Below are positions 720 to 45,612 of a DNA stretch of 64,000 nucleotides, piece by piece. How positions within the stretch are numbered: position 1 is the first letter of the stretch; every line of letters begins with the position of its first letter. A program made the position numbers and the translations under genes. The notes under the pieces were generated by a model that worked only from the letters and a program-made list of their open reading frames with translations, was not told the DNA's origin and made no database searches. Origin of the DNA: Salmo salar. Taxonomy: Eukaryota. The stretch spans positions 34,160,034 through 34,224,033 of the forward strand of contig NC_059455.1 in the NCBI RefSeq assembly GCF_905237065.1, in the 5' to 3' direction.

Positions 720-2425
720 TACATCGTGAACGTAACCCTCGATCCAGTTACTGTAACCTTTCAGTTGGACTGCCCTGAGCAGTCTGTCGTTTTCATCTGC
801 CCATTTATCAATATAAGTTGATGTATGAGAGCATAAGTTGTTCTGGACGACTCACGCTCTCCGTAGCCGATATAAGACCTTCAAACAGGGCAACATTCAC
901 AAGGTCGCAGGGCCAGACGGATTACCAAGATGTGTACTCCGAGCATGCGCTGACCAACTGGCAAGTGTCTTCACTGATATTTTCAACCTGTCCCTGACCG
1001 AGTCTGTAATACCAACATGTTTCAAGCAGACCACCATAGTCCCTGTGCCTAAGAACACCAAGGTAACCTGCCTAAATAACTACCGACCCATAGCACTCAC
1101 GTCTGTAGCCATGAAGTGCTTTGAAAGGCTGGTCATGGCTCACATCAACACCATTATCCCAGAAACCCTAGACTCACTCCAATTTGCATACCGCCCCTAC
1201 ACATCCACAGATGATGCAATCTCTATTGCATTCCACACTGCCCTTTCCCACCTGGACAAAAGGAACTCCTATGTGAGAATGCTGTTCATTGACTACAGCT
1301 CAATAATGCAGCACCATAATGCCCACAAAGCTCATCACTAAGCTAAGGACTCTGGGACAAAACACCTCCCTCTGCAACTGGATCCTGGACTTCCTGATGG
1401 GCCGCCCCCAGGTGGTAAGGGTAGGTAACAACACATCTGCCACACTGATCCTCAACACAGGGGCCCTTCAGGGGTGCGTGCTTAGTCCCCTCCTGTACTC
1501 CATGTTCACCCATGACTGCATGGCCAGGCACGACTCCAACACTATCAATTTTGCCACGACAACAACACAACAGGCCTGATCACCGACAACGAAGAGACCT
1601 GGCAGTGAGGTGCCAGGATAACAAACTCTCCCTCAATGTGATCAAGACAAAGGAGATGATTGTGGACTACAGAAAAAGGAGGACCGAACACGCCCCCATT
1701 ATCATCGACTGGGCTGTAGTGGAGCAAGTTGAGAGCGCCTATTGACATGACAACGCCTATTCCCCCTCAGGAGGCTGAAAAGATTTGGCATGGGTCCTCA
1801 GATCCTCAAATAATTCTACAGCTGCACCATCGAGAGCATCCTGACTGGTTGCATCACGACCTGGTATGCCAACTGCTCGGCCTCCGATTGCAAGGCACTA
1901 CAGAGGGTAGTGCGTACGGCCCAGTACATCACTGGGGCCAAGCTTCTTGCCATCCAGGACCTCTATACCAGGCGGTGTCAGAGGAAGGCCCAAAGAATTA
2001 CCAAAGACTGCAGCCACCCTAGTCATAGACTGTTCTCTCTGCTACCGCACAGCAAGTGGTACCAGAGCGCCAAGTCTAGGTCAAAAAGGCTTCTTAACAG
2101 CTTCTATGACCAAGCCATAAGACTCTTGAACAGTTAATCAAATGGCTACCCGTACTATTTGCATTGTCCCCACCCCCATTTTTACGCTGCTGCTACTCTC
2201 TGTTTATTATCCATGCATAGTCACTTTACTTCTACCTACATGTACATATTACCTCAATTACCTCGACTAACCGGTCACCCCGCACATTTACTCTGTACCG
2301 GAACCCTCTGTATATAGCCTCGCTACAGTTATTTTATTGTTGCTTCTTAATTTCTTTTTTTAACTGCTTTGTTGGTTAAGGGCTTGTAAGTATGCATTTG
2401 TTGTATTTGGCACGTGACAAATAAA
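720..2425 (+). mobile_element. L2/CR1-like LINE, 5'-truncated, comprising reverse transcriptase and 3' UTR.
   Basis: Frame-shifted ORFs 838..2137 carry RT motifs ([82 protein letters not shown]). The 3' end reads '...gacaaataaaattcgatttg'. It is homologous to the copies at 56120..59700 and 62905..63560. Confidence 0.8.
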
Positions 2426-3961: not shown

Positions 3962-6425
3962 TCACCTTTATTTAACCAGGTAGGCAAGTTGAGAATAAGT
4001 TCTCATTTACAATTGCGACCTGGCCAAGATAAAGCAGATTGACACATACAACAACACAGAGTTACACATGGAGTAAAACAAACATACAGTCAATAATATA
4101 GTAGAAAAATAAGTCTATATACAAAGTGAGCAAATGAGGTGAGTGAAGGGAGGTAAAGGCAAAAAAGGTCATGGTTGCGAAGTAAATACAATATAGCAAG
4201 TAAAACACTGGAATGGTAGATTTTCAGTGGAACAAAGTGCAAAGTAGAAATAGAAATAATGGGGTGCAAAGGAGCAAAATAAATACAGTAGGGGAAGAGG
4301 TAGTTGTTTGGGATAAATTATAGATGGGCTATGTACAGGTGCAGTAATCTGTGAGCTGCTCTGACAGCTGGTGCTTAAAGCTAGTGAGGGAGATAAGTGT
4401 TTCCAGTTTTAGAGATTTTTGTAGTTCGTTCCAGTCATTGGCAGCAGAGAACTGGAAGGAGAGGCGGCCAAAGGAGGAATTGGCTTTGGGGGTGACCAGA
4501 GAGATATACCTGCTGGAGCGCGTGCTACAGGTGGGTGCTGCTATGGTGACCAGCGAGCTGAGATAAGGGGGAACTTTGCCTAGCAGGGTCTTGTAGATGA
4601 CCTGTAGCCAGTGGGATTGGCAACGAGTATGAAGCGAGGGCCAGCCAACGAGAGCGTACAGGTCACGGTGGTGGGAAGTATATGGGGCTTTGGTGACAAA
4701 ACAGATGGCACTGTGATAGACTGCATCCAATTTATTCAGTAGGGTATTGGAGGCCATTTTGTAAATTACATCGCCGAAGTCAAGGATCGGTAGGATGGTC
4801 AGTTTTACGAGGGTATGTTTAGCAACATGAGTGAAAGATGCGTAGAGGTGGATCAGAGAATCACCAGCAGCAAGAGCATCATCATTGATGTATACAGAGA
4901 AAAGAGTCGGCCCAAGAATTGAACCCTGTGGCACCCCCATAGAGACTGCCAGAGGCCCGGACAACAGGCCCTCCAATTTGACACACTGAACTCTATCAGA
5001 GAAGTAGTTGGTGAACCAGGCGAGGCAATCATTTGAGAAACCAAGGCTGTTGAGTCTGCCGATGAGGATGTGGTGATTGACAGAGTCGAAAGCCTTGGCC
5101 AGGTCAATGAATACGGCTGCACAGTATTGTTTCTTATCGATGGCGGTTAAGATATCGTTTAGGACCTTGAGCGTGGCTGAGGTGCACCCATGACCAGTTC
5201 TGAAACCAGATTGCATAGCAGAGAAGGTGCGGTGGGATTCGAAATGGTTGGTAATCTGTTTGTTGGCTTGGCTTTCGAAGACTTTAGAGAGGCAGGGTAG
5301 GATAGATATAGGTCTGTAGCAGTTTGGGTCAGGAGTGTCCCCCCCTTTGAAGAGGGGGATGACCGCAGCTGCTTTCCAATCTTTGGGAATCTCAGACAAC
5401 ACAAAAGAGAGGTTGAACAGGCTAGTAATAGGGGTTGCAACAATTTCGGCAGATAATTTTAGAAAGAAAGGGCCCAGATTGTCTAGCCCGGCTGATTTGT
5501 AGGGGTCCAGATTTTGCAGCTCTTTCAGAACATCAGCTGACTGGATTTGGGAGAAGGAGAAATGGTGAAGGCCTGGGTGAGTTGCTGTGGGGGGTGCAGT
5601 GCTGTTGACCGGGGTAGGGGTAGCAGGTGGAAAGCATGGCCAGCCGTAGAAAAATGGTTATTGAAATTCTCAATTATAGTGGATTTATCAGTGGTGACAG
5701 AGTTTCCTATCCTCAGTGCAGTGGGCAGCTGGGAGGAGGTGCTCTTATTCTCCAAGGACTTTACAGTGTCCCATAACTTTTTTGAGTTTGTGTTGCAGGA
5801 AGCAAATTTCTGCTTGAAAAAGCTAGCCTTGGCTTTTCTAACTGCCTGTGTATATTGGTTTCTAACTTCCCTGAAAAGTTGCATATCATGGGGGCTGTTC
5901 GATGTTAATGCAGAACGCCACAGGATGTTTTTGTGTTGGTTAAGGGCAGTTAGGTCTGGAGAGAACCAAGGGCTATATCTGTTCCTGGTTCTAAATTTCT
6001 TGAATGGGGCATGCTTATTTAAGATGGTGAGGAAGGCATTATTTTTTTAAATAACCAGGCATTCTCTACTGAAGGGAAGAGGTCAATATCCTTCCAGGAT
6101 ACCCGGGCCAGGTCGATTAGAAAGGCCTGCTCGCTGAAGTGTTTCTGGGAGCGTTTGACAGTGATGAGTGGAGGTTGTTTGACCGCTGACCCATTACGGA
6201 TGCAGGCAGTGATCGCTGAGATCTTGGTTGAAAACAGCAGAGGTGTATTTAGAGGGCAAGTTTGTTAGGATGATATCTATGAGGGTGCCCGTGTTTACGG
6301 CTTTGGGGTGGTACCTGGTAGGTACATTGATAATTTGTGTGAGATTGAGGGCATCAAGCTTAGATTGTAGGATGGCTGGGGTGTTAAGCATGTTCCAGTT
6401 TAGGTCACCTAGCAGCACGGGCTAT
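3962..6425 (-). mobile_element. L2-like LINE of a second subfamily with endonuclease and RT. An (AT)n simple repeat at 3948..3961 abuts the element's 3' tail.
   Basis: Minus ORF 6194..6418 is an APE-type endonuclease (LLGDLNWNMLN...INVPTRY). ORFs 4329..5402 plus 5159..5884 are RT (YRPISILPCLSKVFE, FRTGHGCTSA, AAVFIDLAKAFDSVNH, VPQGSILGPTLFSVYIND). The 3' UTR motif 'cttggccaggtcgcaattgtaaatgagaac..cctggttaaataaagg' ends in (AT)7. Confidence 0.75.
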
Positions 6426-6503
6426 GAAGATAGATGGTTAGTTAAATAAAAAAGCTTGTCAATTTCTAAAAACCTCCGTATTGTATTTTTCACATAGAAA
6501 GTG

Positions 6504-8880
6504 TTACATAAAAACTATGCACTTATGAACTATATGTTCCATCTGGTATGAGACAACAAACTTGTGTGTGGATCCCCTGGGTATGCGGGTATCGTGTACT
6601 GAGACACTGGACTCTCTCCGATGTGAGTTTTCTGATGTGACTTCATACCAGAATGCTGGGGGAAGCATTTCCCGCACTTGTAGGGTTTCTCCCCACTGTG
6701 GATCATGTCTGACCAGGTTGCACAGCTTGGTGAAACTCCTGCCAAACTGTTCGCATGGGTTAACAGTTTCTCTCCGGTGTGACTCCGGAGGTGTTCTTTG
6801 AGCTGGCAGAAGGTGCAGCTGAAACGCCTCTCGGTGGTGCCACCTGATCTCCACTGAGTCCTCATTCTCTTCACCATGTTAAAACTACTGTGACTCAGGC
6901 TGTATCCAGAGAAGGTGGAGGTGGTGGCCATGTTTGACCCTGTCACACACTCACTCAATCTCACTGTTGCTTCTGAAGCCCTGTATTGATGCTACCTTGG
7001 CTGTAGAGCTAAACTATTTCCTTTATTATTTGAGTTTAGCCTCTCACTGCTCTGTCCCTCTGGCATCTGTTGTCTAGTCTCATCAGCCAATGTCCTGACA
7101 TGTATTTTCATGTGTTTTGCAGCACTGAACATGTTAGCATGTGGTTTCCATATAGAAGAGTGAAGCGATGGCCCTACTTCATCTGTCATAGTAGAAACAG
7201 ATGGCAGCCCACTATGAGATGGGAAAATTGAGATATTCTGAGAGTACTCTTCTGCGGAATGAAAGGAGAAATCTGGGTGGCCATCAGGGTCAGTGTCTCT
7301 GCCTGGATCCACAGAGGTCCACAGCTGCCCATCAGACTCATCCATAACAAACTGGTCAGGACCTGCCAGGGTCGTGGTCTGATCCAGCTCCTCCTCTTTC
7401 ACCATCACTAGGTCTAGGAAGTCCTCGTCCTCATCTGGCTGGTGCTGCTCTGAACACCTTTGTAGATGCGAGCTGGGGTGTGCCTGGTTCCTCTGGACGA
7501 TCAGAATTGGGGTAATGTTTTACTGAGTGTTCAGGAGATATGTTGGGTTGTGTGATGAAGTCCTCATCACAGTGCTGTTGCTCAAAGGATGGTGGTTTCC
7601 CAGGCTTGAAACCAGATTCTAAAGATTTGGGTATAAACATTAAGAAACATTACAAAAGACCCTTAACAGTTGCAAAACATGACTGCTTTAGAACTGACAC
7701 CACACCCACACAGTCTTCCATAGACAGACAGAGCAGTGCCCCTTATGGTCACACCCACCCTCTCCAGTGATCCTGAGCTCTTCCTGAAAATCAGTCTTCC
7801 ACACATCCTCTGTCTCCTCATCTTTGATCAGTATGGGTTCAGTCTCCACTCTCTGCTCCACATCTGTAGGCTGTAACAGGGACTGAGGTTATTACTCTGG
7901 ACACACACCATATATGCATTTATATTACCTTTATTCAACCAGGAAAATCCCATTGAGACACAGTCTATTTTGCAAGGGAGACCTGGCCAAGAAGGCAGCA
8001 GCAATCAATACATTACAACACTTAAAACATACAATACAATCCAGCCTACAGGAAACATTTACACTCCTCCTGAACAGAGTTTTGTACTAGAGTTTTAAAG
8101 TAATTGAGAGGCACTAGACTACTACATCTAGTTGAAGCATACTTTGTAGAAAATGTCATGCCTCTGGTGCACAATAAAGAAGGCAGTCTTGCCTAACTCA
8201 GTAACAGCCCTGGGGACTTTAAGCGGAAACCACCTAGTAGACCGGGTCTGGTAACTGCTAGCGATGAAGAAAAGCAGGTTACAGAGATAAAGAGGGAGTT
8301 TACCCAGAAGGGGTATATGAACATATATCTAACACTTTTCATACTCATGAATCACACAAAAGCAAAAACATTCTACTGATAATCCAATATCAGAATTGAT
8401 CCAAGAGGCCAGCCAGGTCTCTGTAATTGTAAAAGGTGATGTATCACACCTGGGGTTGAGAGTCCTCCTCAACAGCCAGCTCTTCGTCTCTGCACTGTGA
8501 GGTACTCCTCTGCTTGTTCAAAACAATCTTGACTGGATATGAAGATCTCTCTGATGCCATGAGGTAAAAAAAGGGAAAATAATTGTGTTCAGTCAAATAT
8601 TAGGGCTATTCACACATTTGCTTTTTGCATATACAATCAATTTAACATAAATAACACAACTACCTTGTCTCCTGACTCGTCCTCGTGTCTTCTTCAGCTC
8701 GCTCTCCATCATTTGACACTTCCTTTTCAGTACATCAATATCTCGCTGACTTTGGACCATTTCCAAAAGTATAACAGCACAGCTATCATCTACACGATTG
8801 TTTATTTCTGTTAGAGCTGCTTTATTTAGCCAATACCTCCAGAATGGATACCAACTGCGCCTGAAAATTGCTGCTGGACA
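6504..8880 (-). pseudogene. Decayed tandem paralog (gene A) of the C2H2 zinc-finger gene B.
   Basis: Exon-1, exon-2 and exon-3 homologs of gene B are all present, at 8665..8878, ~7745..7875 and 6530..7440. The exon-1 homolog has an in-frame TAA after 'MSSSNFQAQLVSILEVLAK' plus a frameshift. The finger region has deletions and frameshifts, reading '[29 protein letters not shown]' where gene B has '[38 protein letters not shown]'. The body is split into ORFs 6530..6964 and 6992..7408. A ~440 bp insertion sits in intron 1 (7900..8340), and the upstream promoter region differs from gene B. Confidence 0.6.
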
Positions 8881-9399
8881 TAATGTCCAGCCCAAATTAC
8901 AGATTTGTATTCTCTGTGTGAAGTGAATAGTTGACAATTTCCAAGCTAATGTGCAATAAACAATCCGTAGCAGTTGATAAAAGGCAACTATGTGACCGTG
9001 TTCGAGAGCATCAAAACAGTGATGTATCATGGGTAAATTGTGACTGACTGATATACAAATAATATTGAGTAGTTATTTATGTTGCAATGTTTTTTGTAGA
9101 TCAGTCAGTCTCCACACGCTAGTAATGGCATCTTTATGTGGGCAGAATACGAATGGAGGTTTTTTGGGGGGGATAAATGCCAAAAATAAGGTATATGGTA
9201 GACACAGGCGTATAAGATCTTATGTTTTGTTCTATAAAATATTCTTAATCAGCTAACGTCACTATGTGAATGTATGTAATTTTAAAAAAGCACATAAAGG
9301 CTTTATAATTCATAAATGGCATGTTAACTGACTGCGGTTATCTCATAGAGCAAAATGTAGAAGATCTCCTAAGCCTGTGTTAACCCTCAGACCTTATTT

Positions 9400-9717
9400 T
9401 TGGCATTTATCCCAAAACCCTATTCTTTCGCCATTAATTTTTCCTGTAGGGATGGCTGGGTTTTGGGACTACAAGCGAACTGGAACAAAGTCACGTTGTC
9501 TGGGAAATATTGTGTATCTAATAAGATGAAAGAAGTATCATACAAACTCATTCACAGAATCTACCCTCTAAAGACCTTTATTGTACACAGATTCAAAATT
9601 GCTATTGATAACAAATGTGTATTTTGTGGTTGTGACCCAGAGACTCTTGACCATTTATTTTGGGACTGTTCTTATGCCACAAGATTTTGGAGTGAGTTAG
9701 ATTTTATTTTAAAATAA
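9400..9717 (+). mobile_element. Retroelement fragment, the C-terminal zinc-binding (zf-RVT-like) tail of a LINE ORF2.
   Basis: The ORF ends ...KIAIDNKCVFCGCDPETLDHLFWDCSYATRFWSEL. The CxxC...HLFxxC...W pattern is typical of LINE ORF2 C-terminal zinc knuckles. It is isolated, with no flanking RT. Confidence 0.35.
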
Positions 9718-9977
9718 CCTACAAATTATATGGACCCCCGATGTAACTTTCATTGTAAGTTTATTTTTCATGGCAGATTCTTTATCCATTCACATTGTTA
9801 TGGAAAGAATTGAACCATTTTGAAACGATCTGTAAGTGTAAAAACAAAAAAGCAATATGTACCATAAAACTTTAAAACGCAACATGTAACAATTTCAAAG
9901 ATTTTACTGAGTTAGAGTTTATATAAGGAAATCAATCAATTGACCCCAAAAAAATCATTAAATCTCTGAATTTCATC

Positions 9978-10110
9978 ATGACTGGGAATACAGATATGCA
10001 TCTGTTGGTCACAGATTCCTTTAAAAAAAAAAAAAAAAGGCAGGGGTGTGGATCAGGAAAACCGTCAGTATCTGGTGTGACCACCAATTTACTAACATTT
10101 CTGAAAATGG
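9978..10110 (+). mobile_element. Terminal fragment of Tc1-like family F.
   Basis: 'gactgggaatacagatatgcatctg...cagtatctggtgtgaccaccaatt' matches 46330..46430 of the family F element at 46256..47706. Confidence 0.45.
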
Positions 10111-10823
10111 ATATAGTGTTTTGGAATAAAACTTCATATACACTCCCCTATTTATTTAGAAAGTGAAGCTAAAACTTTTCATTTGGCTCTATACTCCAGC
10201 ATTTTGGATTTAATATCAAATATTTTATGAGGTGACCTTTTATTTGAGGGTATTTTCGTACATAAATTATTTTACCGTTTAGAAATGTATGACCTTTATC
10301 TAGTCCCCCCATGAAAGTTTCATAAGTATTTAGAAAATTTACTTAGAGTATTACATTGTCAAAAGTTTAGTATTTGGTCCCATAGTCCTAGCACGCAATG
10401 ACTACAACATGCATGTGACTACAAACTTGTTGGAAACATTAGCATTTTTTGTGTTTGGATCGAAAATGTGTCAATAAAGCAGTGAATTGGGAGCATAAAC
10501 AGTGTGAAGGGCCTTCCTCATCTGTACATGTATTTTTTCTTGGCCCAGCACATTTAAGGATGTGCGTATGCCCAACTTGTCTATAGTCATTATGTTGTGC
10601 CCAATAGAAATTAAAAGTAAATAATGTAGTGTGTCATTTTGGAGTCATTTTCATTGCAAATTAGAATATATTGTTTGTTTTTAAATAAATAAATTATCAT
10701 TTTATAAGTGAGGAGCCGTTAACAGTCAAACATGAACACCATTTTACCTTCTGCACCACATTTACCCATAAAGTGATACAGAAAGAACTATGCAATTATT
10801 AACTATTTGTTCCATCTGTTCTG

Positions 10824-11943
10824 AGACTACATTAAACTTGTGTGTTGATCCCCTGGGTATGCGGGTATCATGTACTGAGACACTGGACTCTCTCCTATGT
10901 GAGTTCTCTGATGTGACTTCATACCGGAGCGCTGGGGGAAGCATTTCCCACACTGTGTGCACTTGTAGGGCTTCTCTCCACTGTGGACCACAGCATGTCT
11001 GATCAAGTTGCACTGTTTGGTAAAACTCCTGCCACACTGTTCACAGGTGTACGGTTTCTCTCCAGTGTGACTTCGGAGGTGTTCTTTTAGCTGCCAGAAA
11101 CGCGGGAAGCTCTTCCCACAGAAGGTGCAGCTGAAACACCTCTCGGTGGTGCCGCCTGATCTCCACTGAGTCCTCATTCTCTTCACCATGTTAAAACTAC
11201 TGCGACTCAGGCTGTATCCAGAGAAGGTGGAGGTGGTGGCCATGTTTGACCCTGTCGTGCACTCACTCAATCTCACTGTTGCTCCTGAAGCCCTGTATTG
11301 ATGCAGTCTTGGCTGTAGAGCTAAACTATTTCCATCATTATTTGAGTTCAGCATCTCACTGCTCTGTCCCTCTGGCATCTGTTGTCTAGTCTCATCAGCT
11401 AATGTCCTGACATGTCTTGTCATGTGTTTTGCAGCACTGAACATGTTAGCATGTGGTTTCCATATAGAAGAGTGAAGCGATGGCCCTACTTCATCTGTCA
11501 TAGTAGGAACAGATGGCAGCCCACTATGAGATGGGAAAATTGAGATATTCTGAGAGTACTCTTCTGTGGAATGAAAGGAGAAATCTGGGTGGCAGACAGG
11601 GTCAGTGTCTCTGCCTGGATCCACAGAGGTCCACAGCTGCCCATCAGACTCATCCATGACAAACTGGTCAGGACCTGCCAGGGTCGTGGTCTGATCCAGC
11701 TCCTCCTCTTTCACCATCACTAGCTCTAGTGAGTCCTCATCTGGCCGGTGCTGCTCTGCGCTGAACACCTCTGTAGATGTGAGCTGGGGTGTTCCTGGTT
11801 CCTCTGGACGATCAGAATTGGGGTAATGTTCCACTGAGTCTCTGGGAGATATATTGGGTTGTGTGATGAAGTCCTCATCACAGTGCCGTTGCTCAAAGGA
11901 TGGTGGTTTCCCAGGCTTGAAACCAGACTCTAAAGATTTGGAG
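10824..11943 (-). CDS. Zinc-finger gene B, last coding exon. It has a linker region plus three C2H2 fingers, with the stop at 10824..10826.
   Basis: ORF 10827..11987 reads (...SLESGFKPGKPP...[84 protein letters not shown]...). The acceptor is at '...tctccaaatctttag|agtctgg'. Confidence 0.65.
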
Positions 11944-12100
11944 ATAAACATAAAATAGAGATGACAAAAAACCCTTAACAGTTGCAAAATATGACTGCTT
12001 TAGAACTGACTGTGTGTATGTGCACTCCATACGCCAGAACATAAAACACCAATGTAATTTGGAAAGTGCATACCACCATACCCACACAGTCTTCCATAGA

Positions 12101-12242
12101 CAGACAGAGCAGTACCCCTTATGGTCACACCCACCCTCTCCAGTGATCCTGAGCTCTTCCTGAGGGTCAGTCTTCCACACATCCTCTGCTGTCTCCTCAT
12201 CTTTGATCAGTATGGGTTCAGTCTCCACTCTCTGCTCTACAT
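12101..12242 (-). CDS. Zinc-finger gene B, exon 2, an acidic linker.
   Basis: The minus-strand translation is (D)VEQRVETEPILIKDEETAEDVWKTDPQEELRITGEGG. The acceptor is 'cctacag|at' and the donor lies near 'GG|gtgtga'. It is conserved in gene A at ~7745..7875. Confidence 0.55.
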
Positions 12243-12629
12243 CTGTAGGCTGTAACAGGGACTGAGGTTATTACTCTGGAAACACCATGTGTAATGCTTT
12301 TCATACTCATGAATCACACAAAAGCAGTAAATTGTCCTGATATTCCAATATCAGAATTGATCCAAGAGGTTAGGTCTCTGTCATTTTAAAATGTGATGTA
12401 TCACACCTTGGGTTGAGAGTCCCCTTCAACAGCCATCTTGCTGTCTCTCCACTGTGAACTACTCCTCTGCTTGTTTAAAACTATCTTGACTGGATATGAA
12501 GATCTCTCTGGTGCCATGGGATAAAAAACGGGAAAATACTAGTAATTGTATTCAGTCAAATATTAGGGCTATTCACACATTTACGTTTTGCATATGCAAT
12601 CAGTTTAACATGAATAACACATCAACTAC

Positions 12630-12843
12630 CTTTTCTCCTGACTCGTCCTCGTGTCTTCTTCAGCTCGCTCTCCATCATTTGCCACTTCCTTTTCAGTACA
12701 TCAATATCTCGCTGGCTTTGGGTCATTTCCATACGTATAACAGCACAGCTATCATCAACACGATTGTTTATTTCGGCTAAAGCTGCTTTAGCTAATACCT
12801 CCATAATGGATATAAACTGCGCCTGAAAATTGCAGCTGGCCAT
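12630..12843 (-). CDS. Zinc-finger gene B, exon 1, with ATG at 12841..12843. It encodes the shared N-terminal domain.
   Basis: Translation is MASCNFQAQFISIMEVLAKAALAEINNRVDDSCAVIRMEMTQSQRDIDVLKRKWQMMESELKKTRGRVRRK. The donor is 'aaaag|gtagttg' with phase 1. The same domain opens gene 3, MFQQNMTNCVTFQTKLSSVMDVLAKAAVAEISKMFDDGFAVLRLEM..ENEIESLKRQL. Confidence 0.65.
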
Positions 12844-12971
12844 CTTGTCCAGCCCAAATTACAGATTTGTATTTTCTGTGTTAAGTAAAGTCTACAATTT
12901 CCAACCTAATGTTCAATAAACAAGCCGTAGATGTCGACAAATTAAAACAACGCGTGATGCGTGCGCAATTG

Positions 12972-13760: not shown

Positions 13761-14299
13761 TAAAACTTGCACAATATAGTTAATAGAATTGTCAATTTAA
13801 AGAAATTTTGCCAATTTATTCATTACTAAATTTAGCTAAATTTAGTTAATCAAGAGATTCTTACCTTTGCCTCGATTCGGCAATCTAGTCCAGATCATCA
13901 TGGCACTCTTAGTTATTTATGATAGCCTCATTAGCATTTCAATGTTTTTTTGTGTTTTTTGGGGGGGGGGACCTTGTCTTAGAGATTTACACTGTTATCA
14001 AAACATCACACCAGGGTAAGCCTACATTATTTTTTCTATGGGAAAAAGGAATGGTGGAAAAACGATTGGAACCATTTTCCTGTTTGACCGCTAGGTTTTA
14101 TGGGTATTATAACTCATACTGTGGTACTCTATTCTACTGGTGCTGACATTTGACTGTAGGGTATCAGCAAATATAAAAGTTTACACTATTCATCTTTGGC
14201 AAAGATACTTATACAGTGAGTTTCAAAAGTACACTTTGGATTTGAAATGACACAAGTACTATGGGGTTAGTGCAGACTCAACTTTCATTTGAGGGTATT

Positions 14300-16380
14300 T
14301 AAAACATTTTCTTTTTTAAATTTATACCCCCTTTTTCTCCCCAATTTCGTGGTATCCAATTGTTAGCCCTTACTGTCTTGTCTCATTGCTACAACTCCCG
14401 CACGGACTCGGGAGAGGCGAAGGTCGAGAGCATTGCGTCCCATTTTAGGGGACCAAAAGTATTGGGACAAATTCACGTGTATTAAACAAGTAAAAAGTTT
14501 AGTATTTGGTCCCATACTTCTAGCACGCAATTACTACATGAAGCTTGCGACTCGACAAACTTGTTGGATTCATTAGCTGTTTGTTTTGGTTGTGTTTCAG
14601 ATTACTTTGTACCCAATATAAATGTATGGTAAATAATGTATTGTGTTATTTTGGAGTCACTTTTATTGTAAATAAGAATAGAATATGTTTCTAAACATCT
14701 CTACATTAATCTTGATGCTACCATGATTATGGATAATCCTCAATGAAGCGTGAATAATAATGAGTGAGAAAGTTAGACACATATCAGTCAGTTATAAATG
14801 TAGTTATATCTTTGGTTTAGCACTGGCAAGGAAAATACCAGGATGTATTCTAGCCCAACCGGCTGCAAGATTGCGTTATAATTCCTTTAAAAATAATATT
14901 CTTGGCTGCCCTACATGCAGACTAATATTAAAACCTCTCTGGGACATCTGGGACGCTAGCGTCCCACCCGCGGGACACACTATCAACAGCCAGTGAAATA
15001 GCAGGGCGGCAAATTTAAAACAACAAAAGTCTCATAATTCAAAATTCTCAAACATACAAGTATTATACACCATTTTAAAGATACGATTCTCCTTAATCTA
15101 ACCACAGTGTCCGATTTCAAAAAGGCTTTATGGCGAAAGCATAACATTTGATTATGTTGGGACAGCGCCGAGACAAGAAAAACCACACAGCCATTTTCCA
15201 AGCAAGGAGAGGTGTCACAAAAACCAGAAATACAGCTAAAATGAATCACTAACCTTTGATGATCTTCATCAGATGACACTCTCAGGACTCAATGTTACAA
15301 AATACATGTATGTTTTGCTTGATAAAGTTAATATTTATATCCATAAACCCCATTTTACATTGGCGCGTGATGTTCAGAAAATGTTTTCCCACCAAAACCT
15401 CCGGTGAATGAGCACATCAATTTACAAAAATACTCATCATAAACGTTCATAAACTTTACAACAGTTATTGAAAGAATTATAGATATACTACTCCTTAATG
15501 CAACCGCTGTGTCAGATTTTAAAATAGCTTTACGGCGAAAGCACATTTTTCAATATTCTGAGTACAGAGCTCAGCCATCAAAGCAAGCTATACAGTTACC
15601 CGCCAAGTTCTGGAGTCAACTAAACTCATGTGTTAGAAATCTTCCCTTACCTTTGCTGATCTTCGTCGGAATGCACTCCCAGGACTCCCACAAGAAATGT
15701 TCTTTTTGTTCGAAATACTACATATTTATGTCCAAATACCTCCGTTTTGTTCGCGCGTTCAGATCACTAATCCAAAGGCATAACGCGAGAGGGTAAAACC
15801 AGAGACGAAAAGTCAAATAGTTCTATTACCGTTCATAGAAACATGTCAAACGATATTTACAATCAATCCTTAGGGTCTTTTTAACATAAAACTTAGATAA
15901 TATTCCAACCAGACAATAGCGTATTCATTACAGAGGAAAAAGAAAGAGCGGCACGCCAATGTGCCCGCGCTGTAAACAACTCACTGGTCCCAGGCAGTCC
16001 ACTGATTGACTGAGCTCCTATTCTCTGCCCAGTAACAGTGGACGCATGAAACAAGTTTCTAAAGGCTGTTGACAGCCAATGGAAGCCTTAGGAAGTGCAA
16101 AATGACCCCACAGACACTGTAGTTTCGATAGGGATTAGATAGAAAAACTACAAGTCACTTCCTGGTTGGATTTTTTCTCAGGTTTTTGCCTGCCATATGA
16201 GTTCTGTTATACTCACAGACATCATTCAAACAGTTGTAGAAACTTCAGTGTTTTCTATCCAAATCTACTAATAATATGCATATCCTACCTTCTGGGCCCG
16301 AGAAGCAGGCAGTTTAATTTGGGCACACCTTTCATCCGGACGTCAAAATACTGCCCCCTATCCTAGAGAAGTTAACCAAA
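14300..16380. repeat. Composite block of unclassified salmonid-type interspersed repeats.
   Basis: The 'gcacggactcgggagaggcgaaggtcgagag' motif is at 14400. 'cccaaccggctgcaag' and 'ctctgggacatctgggacgctagcgtcccacccgcgggac' are also seen near 2500. An internal direct duplication of ~220 bp links 15080..15300 and 15480..15700. No coding signal is present. Confidence 0.4.
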
Positions 16381-16434
16381 AAGAGAAGACATTAAAGAAT
16401 TCAAGATGGTAGAAAGTCTTCTGTTTTTAGTAAA

Positions 16435-18019
16435 TATACTGCTCAAAAAAATAAAGGGAACACTAAAATAACACATCCTAGATCTGAATGAATGAAATAA
16501 TCTTATTAAATACTTTTTTCTTTACATAGTTGAATGTGCTGACAACAAAATCACACAAAAATAATCAATGGAAATCCAATTTATCAACCCATGGAGGTCT
16601 GGATTTGGAGTCACACTCAAAATTAAAGTGGAAAACCACACTTCAGGCTGATCCAACTTTGATGTAATGTCCTTAAAACAAGTCAAAATGAGGCTCAGTA
16701 GTGTGTGTGGCCTCCACATGCCTGTATGACCTCCCTACAATGCCTGGGCATGCTCCTGATGAGGTGGCAGATGGTGTCCTGAGGGATCTCCTCCCAGACC
16801 TGGACTAAAGCATCCGCCAACTCCTGGACAGTCTGTGGTGCAACGTGGCGTTGGTAGATGGAGCGAGACATGATGTCCCAGATGTGCTCAATTGGATTCA
16901 GGTCTGGGGAACGGGTGGGCCAGTCCATAGCATAAATGCCTTCCTCTTGCAGGAACTGCTGACACACTCCAGCCACATGAGGTCTAGCATTGTCTTGCAT
17001 TAGGAGGAACCCAGGGCCAACCGCACCAGCATATGGTCTCACAAGGGGTCTGAGGATCTCATCTCAGTATCTAATGGCAGTCAGGCTACCTCTGGCGAGC
17101 ACATGGAGGGCTGTGCGGCCCCCCAAAGAAATGCCACCCCACACCATGACTGACCCACCGCCAAACCGGTCATGCTGGAGGATGTTGCAGGCAGCAGAAT
17201 GTTCTCCACGGCGTCTCCAGACTCTGTCACGTCTGTCACGTGCTCAGTGTGAACCTGCTTTCATCTGTGAAGAGCACAGGCCGCCAGTGGCGAATTTGCC
17301 AATCTTGGTGTTCTCTGGCAAATGCCAAACGTCTTGCACGGTGTTGGGCTGTAAGCACAACCCCCACCTGTGGATGTCGGGCCCTCATACCACCCTCATG
17401 GAGTCTGTTTCTGACCGTTTGAGCAGACACATGCACATTTGTGGCCTGCTGGAGGTCATTTTGCAGGGCTCTGGCAGTGCTCCACCTGCTCCTCCTTGCA
17501 CAAAGGCGGAGGTAGCGGTCCTGCTGCTGGGTTGTTGCCCTCCTACGGCCTCCTCCACGTCTCCTGATGTACTGACCTGTCTCCTGGTAGCGCCTCCATG
17601 CTCTGGACACTACGCTGACAGACACAGCAAACCTTCTTGCCACAGCACGCATTGATGTGCCATCCTGGATGAGCTGCACTACCTGAGCCACTTGTGTGGG
17701 TTGTAGACTCCGTCTCAAGCTACCACTAGAATGAAAGCACCGCCAGCATTCAAAAGTGACCAAAACATCAGCCAGGAAGCATAGGAACTGAGAAGTGGTC
17801 TGTGGTCCCCACCTGCAGAACCACTCTTTTATTGGGGGTGTCTTGCTAATTGCCTATAATTTTCACCTGTTGTCTATTCCATTTGCACAACAGCATGTGA
17901 AATTTACTGTCAATCAGTGTTGCTTCCTAAGTGGACAGTTTGATTTCACAGAAGTGTGATTGACTTGGAGTTACATTGTGTTGTTTAAGTGTTCCCTTTA
18001 TTTTTTTGAGCAGTGTATA
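16435..18019 (-). mobile_element. Tc1-like transposon family B, copy 1, near full length with a degenerate transposase.
   Basis: The IRs read 'tatactgctcaaaaaaataaagggaacac' and 'gtgttccctttatttttttgagcagtgtata'. Minus ORFs 16695..17042 and 17236..17763 are transposase with the DDE C-terminus (FLLMQDNARPHVA...[16 protein letters not shown]) and the HTH N-terminus. It is 95%+ identical to copy 2 at 23654..25131. Confidence 0.8.
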
Positions 18020-19440
18020 TACGGTGCATTCGGAAAGTATTCAGACCCCTTTACTTTTTTCCACATTTTATTACATCACAGCCTTTTCCAAAATTGATAA
18101 CATTTTTTAAATATTTTTTTTTAACACTCAATACCCCATAATGATAAACCAAAAACAGGTTTAGAATTTTTTGCTAGTTTATTGAAAATAAACAACTGAA
18201 ATATCACATTTACATAAATATTCAGACTCTTTACTCAGTACTTTGTTGAAGCACCTCTGGCAGCGATTACAGCCTTGAGTCTTCTTGGGTATAACGCTAG
18301 AAGCTTGGCACACCTGTATTTGGGGAGTTTCTCCCATTCTTCTTTGCAGATCCTCTCAAGCTCTGTCAGCTTGGATGGGGAGGGTCGCTGCACAGCTATT
18401 TTCAGGTCTCTCCAGAGATGTTCGATCAGGTTCAAGTCTGGGCTCTGGCTGGGCCACTCAAGGACATTTAGAGACTTGTCCCAAAGCCACTTCTGCGTTG
18501 TCTTGGCTGTGTGGTTAGGGTCGTTGTCCTGTTGGAAGGGGAACCTCCACCCCAATCTGAGGTCCTAAGCGCTCTGGAGCAGGTTTTCATCAAGGATCTC
18601 TCTGTACTTTGGGCCGTTCATCTTTCCCTCGATCTTGACTAGTCTCCCAGTCCCTGAAAAACATCCCCACAGCATGATGCTGCCACCACCGCGTTTCACC
18701 GTAGGGATGGTGCCAGGTTTCCTCGAGACGTGACGTTTGGCCTTTAGGCCAAAGAGTTTGATCGTGACTAGAGAATCTTGTTTCTCATGGTCAAAGTCCC
18801 TTAGGTGCCTTTTGGCAAACTCTAAGATGGCTGTCATGTGCCTTTTACTAAGGAGTGGCTTCCGTCTGGCCACTCTACTATTAAGGCCTGATTGGCGGAG
18901 TGCTGCAGAGTTGGTTGTCTTTCTGGAAGGTTCTCCCATCTCCACAGAGGAGCTCTGTCAGAGTGACCATCAGGTTCTTGGTCACCTCCCTAACCAAGGC
19001 CCTTCCCTCCTGATTGCTCAGTTTGTCCTGGCAGCCAGCTCAAGGAAGTCTTTGTGTTTCCAAACTTCTTCCATTTAAGAATGATGAAGGCCACTTTGTT
19101 CTTGGGGACCTTCAATGCTGCAGAAATGTTTTGGTACACTTCCCCAGAGCTTTGCCTCGACAACAATCATGTATCGGAGCTCTACAGACAATTCCTTCGA
19201 CCTGATGGCTTGGTTTTTGTTCTGACATGCACTGTCAACTGTGGGACCGAATATAGACAAGTGTGTGCTATTCCAAATCATGGCCAATCAATTGAATTTA
19301 CCACAGGTGGACTCCAATCAGGATGTAGAAACATCAGGATGATCAATGGAAACAGAATGCACCTGAGCTCAATTTCTAGTCTTATAGCAAAGGGTCTGAA
19401 TACTTATGTAAATAAGCTATTTCTATTGGTATTTTTAATA
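18020..19440 (-). mobile_element. Tc1-like transposon family C, which abuts family B with no spacer.
   Basis: The IR starts 'tacggtgcattcggaaagtattcagacccctt' at 18020. Minus ORFs 18235..18555 (FQQDNDPNHTAKTTQKWL...[15 protein letters not shown]) and 18565..18945 are present. The right end is degenerate. Confidence 0.7.
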
Positions 19441-19529
19441 CATTTGCAAAAAAAAAAAATGTTTTGCTTTGTCATTATGGGGTATTGTGTGTAGATTTAG
19501 TAAAAATAATAATTTATCCATTTTTGAAT

Positions 19530-19882
19530 AATACCTGACCTCAACCCTACACAGGTGGTTTGGGATGAGATGGACCGCAGAGTAAAGGAAAAGCAGCCAA
19601 CAAGTGCTCAGCATATGTGGGAACTCCTTCAAGACTGTTGGAAAAGCATTCAAGGTGAAGCTGGTTGAGAGAACACTAAGAGTGTGCAAAGCTGTCATCA
19701 AGGGTGGCTACTTTGAAGAATCTAAAATAAACAAATCAAAATAGATTTTATAACACTTTTTTGGTTCCTACGTGATTCCATGTGTTACTTCATAGTTTTG
19801 ATTTCTTCAATGTAAAATAATTTGTCAAAATAAAGAAAAACCCTTGAATGAGTAGCTGTGTTCAAACTTTTGACTGGTACTG
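19530..19882 (+). mobile_element. Tc1-like 3' fragment of family D.
   Basis: The plus-strand reading is ...QVVWDEMDRRVKEKQPTSAQHMWELLQDCWKSIQGEAG..., followed by the terminus '...ttttgactggtactgta'. Confidence 0.5.
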
Positions 19883-20084
19883 TATGAGAGAGCGAGAGAT
19901 AGATCACACACCCACACACTTTATTTCAGGTAACTATTGCATACTACATGCATTATAGCTGATTAACATTCAGAGGTCCTTCTCTTAGGTTTTAAAGGCA
20001 TGTACATATAAGTAGAGATATTAGATGTATGTAGAAGATAGCAGGTAGTGTTGATTGAGCTGCTTGAGAGAATATTCATAAAAG

Positions 20085-21320
20085 TACAGTAGTACTGATA
20101 GACTACATGACCAAAAGTATGTGGACACCTGCTTGTCAAACATCTCATCATGGGCATTAATATGAAGTTGGTCTCCCCTTTGCTGCTATAATAGCTTCCA
20201 GGCTTCTGGGAAGGCTATCCACTAGATGTTGGAACATTGCTGCGGGGACTTGCTTCCATTCAGCCACAAGAGCATTAGTGAGGTCGAGCACTGATGTTGG
20301 GCGATAAGGCCTGGCTTGCAGTCAGCGTTCCAATTCATCCCAAAGGTGTTCAATGGGGTTGAGGTCAGGGCTCTGTACAGGCCAGTCAAATTCTTCCACA
20401 CCGATCTCAACAAACCATTTCTCTATGGGTGCATTGTCATGCTGAAACAGGAAAGGGCCTGCCCCAAACTGTTGCCACAAATTTGGAAGCACAGAATTAT
20501 CTAATTCTATGCTGTAGCGGTAAGATTTTCCTTCATTGGAACTAAAAGGCCTAGCCTGAACCATGAAAAACATCCCCAGACCATTATTCCTCCCCCACCA
20601 AACTTTACAGTTGGCACTATGCATTGGGGCAGGTAGCGTTCTCCTGGCATCTGCCAAACCCAGATTCCTCCGTCGGACTGCCAGATGGTGAAGCATGATT
20701 CATCACTCCAGAGAATGCTCCAGAGTCCAATGGCGGCGAGCTTTACACCACCCCAGCCGACGCTTGGCATTGTGCATGGTGATCTTAGGCTTGTCTGTGG
20801 CTGCTTGGCCATGGAAACCCATTTCATGAAGCTCCCGACGAACAGTTCTTGTGCTGACGTTACGTCCTGATGCAGTTTGGAACTCTGTAATGAGTGTTGC
20901 AATCAAGGACAGACAATGTTTTACACTCTTTGGCGGTCCCGTTCTGTGAGCAGTCCCGTTCTGCAGGGCAGAAATTTGACGAACTGACTTGTTGGAAAGG
21001 TGGCATCCTATGATGGTGCCACATTGAAAGTCACTGAGCTCTTCAGTAAGCCCATTCTATTGCCAATGTTTTCTATGGAGATTGCATGGCCCCCCCAAGC
21101 TCTGACAGCTACGTTAGAGGAACATTTTTACTTTCTATGCCTGTGATATGTGGTTGTCCCACCTAGCTATCTTAAGATGAATGCACTAACCTTTAGTCAC
21201 TCTGGATAAGTGCATCTGCTAAATTACAAAAATGTCAATGCAAGAATGTGTGGCTGAAATAGCAGAATCCACTAATTTGAAGGGGTGTCCACATACTTTT
21301 GTATATACAGTGTATATCTG
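20085..21320 (-). mobile_element. Tc1-like transposon family E. It ends ~60 bp downstream of the TEP1 stop codon.
   Basis: Minus ORFs 20322..20696 ([31 protein letters not shown]) and 20703..20906 (HTH) are present. The right terminus is '...gtgtccacatacttttgtatatacagtgtat'. The same family occurs at 50865..51760 and 59716..59790. Confidence 0.7.
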
Positions 21321-21379: not shown

Positions 21380-42905
<21,526 letters not shown>

Positions 42906-44147: not shown

Positions 44148-44430
44148 ATGTTCCAGCAGAATATGACTAATTGTGTTACTTTTCAAACCAAATTAAGCTC
44201 AGTTATGGATGTGTTGGCCAAAGCTGCGGTGGCAGAAATAAGTAAAATGTTCGATGATGGGTTTGCTGTTTTACGCTTGGAAATGTGCCGAAGAGAAAAT
44301 GAAATTGAATCCTTGAAAAGACAATTATTGTTTATGGAGAACGAACGGCAAACGACGAGGTCCAAAACGCAAGAAGCAGGCTGTTCTTCTACATGCTCGT
44401 CGTCTTCCAGCAGAACGGAGGAGGGACAGG
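44148..44430 (+). CDS. Zinc-finger gene 3, exon 1, encoding the shared N-terminal domain.
   Basis: Translation is MFQQNMTNCVTFQTKLSSVMDVLAKAAVAEISKMFDDGFAVLRLEMCRRENEIESLKRQLLFMENERQTTRSKTQEAGCSSTCSSSSSRTEEGQ. The donor is 'cagg|gtgagcc' in phase 1. Confidence 0.7.
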
Positions 44431-44683
44431 GTGAGCCACCTCCTGCTTACTGTATTCATATAAATATAATTCTGAAATATGTTTCTCAACTCAAGGGTCA
44501 ATTCTTCAAAAATATATAAAATGCAGTAGGACTGAATCCTTTAACACAATGCCTAACTACTGTAGCTAGGTTTCAGTTGTATTGTTTACTTTGTTTAAAT
44601 TGTGCAGTGCTCTCTCTCAACTTTGATATTGACATACCGGTAACGTTATGCTTCTGACAATTCATTAAAACCTCCACTTTCAG

Positions 44684-45612
44684 GGTCCAAGGGGTCTGAT
44701 GAGGATGCTAGTGAAAGGACTTCATTTGAGCAGAACGCCAGAGAGAAAAATGACCAACTGGATCGAAATAGACCACAGCCACATGCAGAAGAAGTAGAGG
44801 GGCTTGATGAACAGTACAGGTCTGGCCACAGAGAGAAGGGTAGTGGACTAGAGTTAGTGAAGAGAGAGCAAGCGGAGGAGTATGATGTTATTTCACTACA
44901 TTCATCAGGAAGTGAACATGGCACAGAGATATCAGATCATGAGGAAACTGAGTTTGCTGTGGATGAGAGAGAGAGTCAGCTCTGGGCGTCTTTAACAGAG
45001 CGCAACTGTGACTCGGAGGGTCCAGATTGCCATAAGTGCACAGAACAATATCCACTGGATCAAGATACAGACATACAGCTCATTCAAAGTGCAGTGGAGG
45101 GTCTCAATAGTGGTCCATCATCAGAGATGGGTGACATTAACAGAGTTATGACAGAAGAGATGCGAGCACAGTCTGTTTGGAATGTGAGAAGAAGTACCCC
45201 TACAGATTTGGCTCAGGCACAGCCAGGACAGCACAGAGAAACCATGCACCCAGAGAGAAGGCAGGATGGGACAACTACCAGAGTGCTGTCAGACAAACAA
45301 ACGCTAGCCAATGAGGGTGCAGCATATTCCAACATTTGGTTAAACAATGTATTTTCACTTGCCCCAAATAGTTTTCACTCAGCAAAAGTACCCCCAAGGA
45401 GAACCCTAGCAAGGGAGAAGTGGTTTGTTTGCTCCTTTTGTGGAAAGAGCTTTGACCGGTTTGGTCACCTGGAGATGCATCAGCGGATTCATACGGGAGA
45501 GAAACCGTACAGCTGTGTCACGTGTGGGAGGTGTTTTGCTCAGCAAAGTAATCTCCGCACACACCAGCGAGTACACAGGGCACTCACAACAAACCAAACT
45601 GTCTACTGATCC
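44684..45612 (+). CDS. Zinc-finger gene 3, exon 2, with two C2H2 fingers and a stop at 45610..45612.
   Basis: The acceptor is 'ccactttcag|gg'. The frame joins ORF 44857..45609, reading ...[79 protein letters not shown]. It shares the phase-1 intron architecture of gene B. Confidence 0.7.

Follow-up and report, generated by a model that had tools for sequence, protein, structure and literature searches.

The window analysed here is a stretch of 64,000 nucleotides from the Atlantic salmon, Salmo salar (NC_059455.1, positions 34,160,034 to 34,224,033). It contains a pair of C2H2 zinc-finger (ZNF) sequences, the intact gene B and its broken neighbour A, both on the minus strand; positions below are those of the window. 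With a probability of roughly 0.9, the best explanation as a whole is that B and A are neighbouring members of an old tandem C2H2 zinc-finger array directly downstream of TEP1 (telomerase-associated protein 1). The members of this array, the dead copy included, trade sequence by ectopic gene conversion, which homogenises paralogues within genera. Judged by its structure and its lesions, A is a textbook case of a non-processed pseudogene, lying in a tandem ZNF array under birth-and-death evolution and gene conversion.

An earlier note on this DNA had seen in the pair a snapshot of birth and death. A decaying duplicate beside an intact neighbour is indeed what is found. The duplicate is not recently born, however, as the pair is already present in the whitefish Coregonus. 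The case is well resolved for a ZNF pseudogene: it has common and private lesions that can be dated, an ancient and harmless intronic insertion, and a conversion tract in a dead copy.

Gene B and its tandem copy

Gene B is split into four coding exons, joined at canonical AG/GT splice sites. Exon 1 (12843..12630) begins with the ATG at 12843, ends at a GT donor and codes for a 71-residue N-terminal helix domain. Exon 2 (12507..12407) is 101 nt long, reads ERSSYPVKIVLNKQ... and has AG/GT flanks. It is present in all full-length homologues, whose proteins of 505-528 residues carry an extra segment, ERSSYPVKIVLNKQRSSSQWRD...PQ, that this exon encodes. When it is used, exon 3 (12249..12135, 115 nt) begins at 12249, behind an AG acceptor at 12250-12251, and has its GT donor after 12135. 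Exon 4 (11929..10827) follows an AG acceptor, encodes the linker and three C2H2 fingers, and closes with a TAG stop at 10829..10827.

The four-exon translation of 510 aa is identical along all 510 residues to RefSeq XP_013996198.2 (UniProt A0A1S3LZ58; P0136), a match for which exon 2 is needed. In tblastn, exons 1 and 4 each align to this protein at 100%. B is thus a gene already in the RefSeq annotation. The earlier note had correctly called B intact and had placed exon 1 exactly. It had given the gene three exons, missing the 101-nt exon, misplacing two splice sites and joining its exons '2' and '3' by a non-canonical TG|TC donor. A canonical three-exon version (474 aa) was also considered; unlike the four-exon product, it is not in the protein collection.

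In Pfam searches, B reaches 56.2 bits for zf-C2H2 (PF00096, cut-off 25.2) in three stretches, and 58.9 bits for zf-H2C2_2 (PF13465, cut-off 40). Membership of the C2H2 class takes at least one C-x2-C-x12-H-x3-H finger above the Pfam gathering threshold, and all three fingers of B lie above the cut-off. Only C2H2 fingers were matched: the same search of B gave no match to SCAN (PF02023, E <= 0.1) or KRAB (PF01352), which rules out identity as a SCAN-domain ZNF or a KRAB-ZNF. The RefSeq name, 'zinc finger and SCAN domain-containing protein 20 [Salmo salar]', is therefore misleading. By prediction the protein starts with a ~70-residue helix and ends with three C2H2 fingers, the two being joined by a long low-complexity linker. 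Most likely B is a sequence-specific regulator, which would act by binding DNA.

Two small features of the B protein may be recorded here. A salmon-specific change of TTG to TAG at 10827..10829 makes it 8 residues (LSQTRWNK) shorter than its trout and whitefish orthologues. Salmon B and its trout orthologue also read ERCFSC where the family consensus is ERRFSC.

The duplicated unit covers 10770..12941 in copy B and 6498..8981 in copy A. The two are offset by 3,960 bp on the same strand, in agreement with the ~4 kb reported before. The pairwise alignment proposed in the earlier note was made with BLASTN and MAFFT. It gives collinear homology in three blocks (E = 0), with 87.2% identity in the 5' part, 95.3% in the exon-3 region and 89.1% in the last exon, a likeness that chance cannot explain. 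The exon homologues, earlier put at three and at 85-90% identity, are kept and number four. Over the aligned coding sequence, A and B are 93.2% identical. Two large differences appear in the global alignment: A has gained ~0.4 kb by insertion and has lost 64 bp from its last intron.

No AG/GT site of A has been lost, and the ATG and the four exon homologues are likewise in place; A is therefore a duplicative copy, not a retroposed one. A non-processed pseudogene is recognised by having the parental exon-intron structure and lying next to its parent. Both are true of A.

Inactivation of copy A

Relative to B, copy A has accumulated nine indels, which include at least four frameshifts, besides a nonsense codon and a stop produced by a frameshift. 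Three lesions had been listed before, and all three are real: the TAA and frameshift in exon 1, the loss of GKSFPRFW from finger 1 and the frameshift in finger 2. Six more are added here (a TAG, a -5, a +6, a -5 in finger 2, a -9 and a -3).

The exon-1 homologue (8664..8881) keeps its ATG and GT donor. An insertion of 4 nt (TAAA) at 8828..8825 brings a TAA into frame at 8824..8822, giving MSSSNFQAQLVSILEVLAK*, so that the salmon exon stops at codon 20. The exon-2 homologue (8550..8450) is open and lies inside a gene-conversion tract. The exon-3 homologue (7759..7870) has lost 3 nt in frame. In the exon-4 homologue (6530..7618) there is first a frameshift by loss of 5 nt near 7453, followed by an in-frame insertion of 6 nt at 7432..7427 and a premature TAG stop at 6994..6992. 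The finger region then suffers the 24-nt deletion near 6812 that removes GKSFPRFW from finger 1, two frameshifts in finger 2 (+2 nt at 6762..6761 and -5 nt near 6706), and a 9-nt deletion near 6674 that removes TQC from finger 3. The ancestral stop context is lost.

All three fingers of A thus carry deletions and none reaches the Pfam threshold; A has no open reading frame (ORF) with an intact finger. For zf-C2H2 the best ORF of A scores 18.1 bits and a frame-repaired conceptual protein 15.9 bits; for zf-H2C2_2 the values are 32.7 and 28.1 bits. No protein with a 100% match to A is found among the salmon proteins checked, and in the orthologous locus of the brown trout, Salmo trutta, no called protein overlaps A. 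Copy A is presumably neither expressed nor functional.

The trout locus (L002; LR584437.1, 35.19-35.21 Mb) comes from an independent assembly, GCA_901001165.2, and the orthologue of A lies there at 13800..16429. Lesions were sorted with a four-way codon alignment and a multi-sequence MAFFT projection. The TAG, the -24, the +2, the -5 of finger 2 and the -9 occur at identical positions in both Salmo species, as does the intronic insertion. Five disabling mutations are thus reproduced in an independent genome.

Each species also has lesions of its own. Those found in salmon only are the +4 with its TAA, the -3 in exon 3, the -5 and +6 of exon 4, the deletion in intron 3 and another loss of 3 nt close to the stop. 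Trout A lacks 3 nt in exon 1 and 1 nt in exon 2, deletions that are either trout-only or common with other genera. Since the exon-1 +4 is absent from the A orthologues of S. trutta, Salvelinus namaycush (lake trout) and Coregonus, the TAA in exon 1 is, on this distribution, a late and salmon-specific addition.

Selection on the two copies

The pairwise ratio of nonsynonymous to synonymous change (ω) between S. salar and S. trutta is 0.44 for B and 0.73 for A. By parsimony counts, the terminal branches of A carry 15 synonymous and 40 nonsynonymous changes, compatible with neutral expectation (p = 0.25). Those of B carry 14 and 19 (p = 0.005) and the internal branch 24 and 25 (p = 2e-5), and both of these are constrained. 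The pattern fits a copy that was long under constraint and was later released.

A dead zinc-finger gene might nevertheless be kept for some other role, such as a non-coding or regulatory transcript, a peptide made of the N-terminal helix, or a reservoir for gene conversion. This is very improbable, although several features of A are on its side. The ATG and the splice sites are all intact despite long decay, A acts as an acceptor in gene conversion, and its ω is nominally below 1. Trout, with its open exon 1, could make a helix peptide. That ω is statistically compatible with neutrality, however, and the same peptide would end at codon 20 in salmon. The upstream region, earlier described as diverged, is so: homology of A to its paralogues stops ~100 bp before the ATG, compared with ~345 bp in B. 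In S. namaycush, exons 3 and 4 of A are lost or displaced. As for a reservoir, no evidence was found for A as a conversion donor.

Age of the duplication

The order TEP1, B, A is common to S. salar, S. trutta, S. namaycush and Coregonus. Orthologues of B are XP_029561255.1 in S. trutta, P0006 in S. namaycush (locus L003) and P0004 in Coregonus clupeaformis (locus L005). B is intact in all of these positions, and A is recognised in all of them by its flank and by an insertion in one of its introns.

This insertion (7909..8321, minus strand) is absent from B. It measures 413 bp, of which 406 bp are the insert proper and 7 bp belong to a target-site duplication (ATATATG) whose second copy flanks it at 8328..8322. 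The translation matches the C-terminal part of a long interspersed nuclear element (LINE) ORF at 4329..5402, which carries a reverse transcriptase domain (RVT_1), with E = 4e-8. From the direct repeats and this match, the insertion is the 3' fragment of a 5'-truncated non-LTR (long terminal repeat) retrotransposon. The earlier note had noticed it as an insertion of ~440 bp in intron 1; it exists, but is shorter than that and lies in the true intron 2. The same fragment sits at the same site in the A orthologues of S. trutta, S. namaycush and Coregonus.

At the S. namaycush locus, TEP1 and the B orthologue are followed by a remnant of A with an open exon 1, the same -1 frameshift in exon 2 as in trout, and the insertion. 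Homology then halts exactly at the exon-3 acceptor. In C. clupeaformis (CM036452.1), a copy of A with A's private upstream flank and the insertion follows B at ~18330..20815. Here all four exons are open and the three fingers are intact. This copy is possibly an under-called gene.

Because the pair, the flank of A and the insertion are all found in Coregonus, duplication and insertion both predate the split between Coregoninae and Salmoninae. Because Coregonus A combines the insertion with a full ORF, the insertion also predates the decay and did not kill A. Read from the lesions, A was inactivated within Salmoninae and was dead before S. salar and S. trutta separated. It was probably dead before the split of Salmo and Salvelinus as well.

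The most probable course of events is as follows. A and B arose by duplication, perhaps through unequal crossing-over, before whitefish (Coregoninae) diverged from salmon, trout and char (Salmoninae). A LINE fragment next entered intron 2 of A without harm. A remained open in Coregonus but was lost in the Salmoninae lineage, with the finger-wrecking indels and the nonsense codon fixed before the S. salar/S. trutta split. Private lesions have since accrued in each species at a neutral-looking rate.

Gene conversion between array members

Evidence of sequence exchange is seen in a tract of 181 bp in salmon A (8380..8560, minus strand) that includes the exon-2 homologue and has been overwritten by a paralogue. 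The tract is 96.7% identical to the S. trutta paralogue P0123 (locus L001, 24992..25172), compared with 79.6% to its own S. trutta orthologue (locus L002, 14270..14430). The overwriting of exon 2 explains why salmon A lacks the -1 frameshift of trout and lake trout. It likewise explains why the donor reads CAG|GT in salmon A but CAT|GT in trout, lake trout and whitefish, as the donor-adjacent change of G to T was erased. The L001 locus was also considered as the orthologous trout locus. It holds paralogues (93.6% and 91.7% identical to B) and was used only as a proxy for the conversion donor.

Trees of exon 4 point in the same direction. Paralogues cluster by genus, with Salmo A and B and two other Salmo paralogues together, and with Coregonus A beside Coregonus B. 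Thus two modes of evolution are seen in one array. Orthologous positions are kept and loss is differential, as in birth-and-death evolution, with A still open in Coregonus but dead in both Salmo and Salvelinus. At the same time members convert one another, as the 181-bp tract and the genus-wise trees show, which is concerted evolution.

One consequence concerns dating. Genus-wise clustering despite positional orthology means that neither the synonymous divergence of A and B (dS 0.13) nor their identity dates the duplication. In this TEP1-adjacent salmonid array, paralogue divergence badly underestimates duplication age. Whole-protein trees are likewise unreliable here because of mosaicism and conversion. 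An example is P0036 of Oncorhynchus kisutch, which grouped with A in a protein neighbour-joining tree. It was rejected as an orthologue of A, as its locus (L004) is not syntenic and resembles B (89.2%) more than A (86.4%).

It is accordingly very improbable that A is a recent, salmon- or Salmo-specific duplicate caught soon after its birth. In favour of such an origin, the pre-finger part of exon 4 places A and B nearer to each other (dS 0.13) and to further paralogues from Salmo than to the Coregonus genes at the corresponding positions. Yet this clustering is accounted for by a conversion that is directly seen, and in S. trutta, S. namaycush and Coregonus alike TEP1 is followed by positional orthologues of both copies, arranged as in salmon. 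In all three, A has its private 5' flank and carries the LINE insertion, which as a genomic change is a rare event.

Strength of the evidence

Several points weigh against an old array with a copy that died within Salmoninae. Four salmon-only indels (+4, -3, -5 and +6) are known from one assembly. The contrast between the terminal branches of A and B is not significant (Fisher p = 0.17), and A may be transcribed or have a non-coding role. The complete ORF of Coregonus A is conceptual; NCBI calls a 303-aa product from the last exon (P0057). Exons 3 and 4 of S. namaycush A were not found in the remaining 7 kb of the locus, but they could lie farther out rather than be deleted. The exon-2 frameshift of trout and lake trout may in principle have arisen more than once or have been spread by conversion.

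Arrays of tandem units that are 87-95% identical are prone to error, but hardly any credence can be given to an intact A whose frameshifts and stops are artefacts of sequencing or of assembly, such as a collapse of near-identical members: the lesions common to the independently assembled trout exclude this for the finger-killing changes and wreck all three fingers on their own, A is likewise broken in S. namaycush, and the window from 1258 to 23943 is collinear with S. trutta LR584437.1 at ~96.4% identity, with the TEP1 3' end, B and A in order and no sign of chimerism. Sequencing error or collapse, which the earlier note had named as the test of its frameshifts, is thus ruled out for five of the lesions.

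Relation to other zinc-finger families

Every salmonid genus sampled has full-length homologues of B, and a species carries several of them on a single chromosome. Outside the salmonids they are found in Osmerus (51% identity) and in Polymixia and Centroberyx (43-46%). The cluster had been called lineage-specific, a view that does not survive these homologues: the array expansion alone looks salmonid, and the family itself teleost-wide.

Members of the family that seem to be live have either 2 or 3 fingers, as finger 1 has disappeared from several of the annotated paralogues in salmonids (...SGGTTGEKPYTCEQCGR... or ...ERRFREKPHTCEQCGR...). The comparison covered the two-finger variants P0041, P0043, P0046, P0047 and P0050, together with P0037, P0040, P0044, P0045 and P0049.

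Another member of the family lies elsewhere in the window. Gene C, on the plus strand at 44148..45609, has exons at ~44148..44432 and 44683..45609, as located by tblastn. It is a two-finger ZNF with the same N-terminal helix domain and an exact match to XP_013996178.2, 'zinc finger protein 233 [Salmo salar]'.

The 71-residue N-terminal domain has no Pfam match, whether the whole of B or exon 1 by itself is searched. In an AlphaFold2 model, residues 2-70 of B form one continuous helix with a confidence score (predicted local distance difference test, pLDDT) of 95. With the domain as query, phmmer matches 543 clusters (50% identity) in a set of 1.84 billion representatives; of 10 matching members sampled, 9 contain C2H2 fingers. 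The helix may be a coiled-coil or an oligomerisation module.

The best-known parallel is provided by mammalian KRAB-ZNF clusters, which evolve by tandem duplication, birth and death, and gene conversion. The salmon array resembles clusters such as that of human chromosome 19 in being tandem, in losing members differentially between lineages, in holding non-processed pseudogenes among live genes, and in undergoing conversion. By analogy, similar processes may shape both. The salmon family differs in having no KRAB domain, 2-3 fingers instead of long arrays, and four coding exons with the helix encoded by the first.

A second parallel is found in the FiNZ-ZNFs of fish. FiNZ is a glutamate-rich N-terminal domain of 28 residues, restricted to cyprinids and found in two-exon genes with a long finger array (Wells et al. 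2023, PMC10547256). As in FiNZ-ZNFs, the salmon genes form a fish-specific family that has expanded in tandem and carries a conserved non-Pfam module on an exon of its own. They differ from the published description in the 71-residue helix, in a range that takes in salmonids, smelt, Polymixia and Centroberyx, in their four coding exons and in their 2-3 fingers. Length, range, exon number and finger number thus rule out FiNZ as the identity of the N-terminal domain. A search of the literature on salmonid ZNF pseudogenes and on a zebrafish identifier found nothing specific.

A broader proposal can be built on these data, though it is doubtful. The array would belong to a large unnamed teleost ZNF family in which the ~70-residue helix could be what the effector or oligomerisation domains KRAB, SCAN and FiNZ are elsewhere, in a fish version, and long-dead copies such as A, still trading sequence with live paralogues through conversion, might serve as a store of variation. 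If this were true, dead array copies would be a reservoir of variation and not inert debris. Little else is new, as B is already annotated and the uncharacterised N-terminal helix family is the only mildly novel by-product. As it recurs in hundreds of fish ZNF clusters, this helix may merit a study of its own. Outside annotation the importance of the pair is slight. Within it, two entries deserve a flag, namely the RefSeq name of B and the full-length Coregonus gene, which is probably under-called.

Surroundings of the pair

Directly upstream of B are the 3' exons of TEP1, at ~21400..30300 on the minus strand; the protein is of the TROVE/NACHT/WD40 type. Transposable elements are abundant around the pair. 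Transposable-element ORFs or fragments lie at 838..1341 on the plus strand. The LINE reverse-transcriptase ORF at 4329..5402, on the minus strand, is directly downstream of A. Further stretches, all on the minus strand, are found at 16695..17763, 18565..18945, 20322..20902 and 23809..24258. Between B and TEP1 there are several Tc1/mariner transposase fragments (HTH_Tnp_Tc3_2, DDE_3).

The spacer between B and A has two features of its own. A pair of inverted repeats, GGGTTTTGGGATAAATGCCAAAAATAAGGT ... ACCTTATTTTTGGCATTTATCCCCCCCAAAAAACC, was found by eye at ~9160..9420 (minus strand). It looks like the terminal inverted repeats that bound a small DNA transposon or a miniature inverted-repeat transposable element (MITE). 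In the Ensembl S. trutta model A0A673WBC8 (P0062), the last exon of the B orthologue is spliced into the homologue of the spacer at ~9950..10140 (minus strand; ...VLFQNTISIFRNVSKLVVTPDTDGFPDPHPC...), which hints at an alternative 3' exon or a read-through transcript of B.

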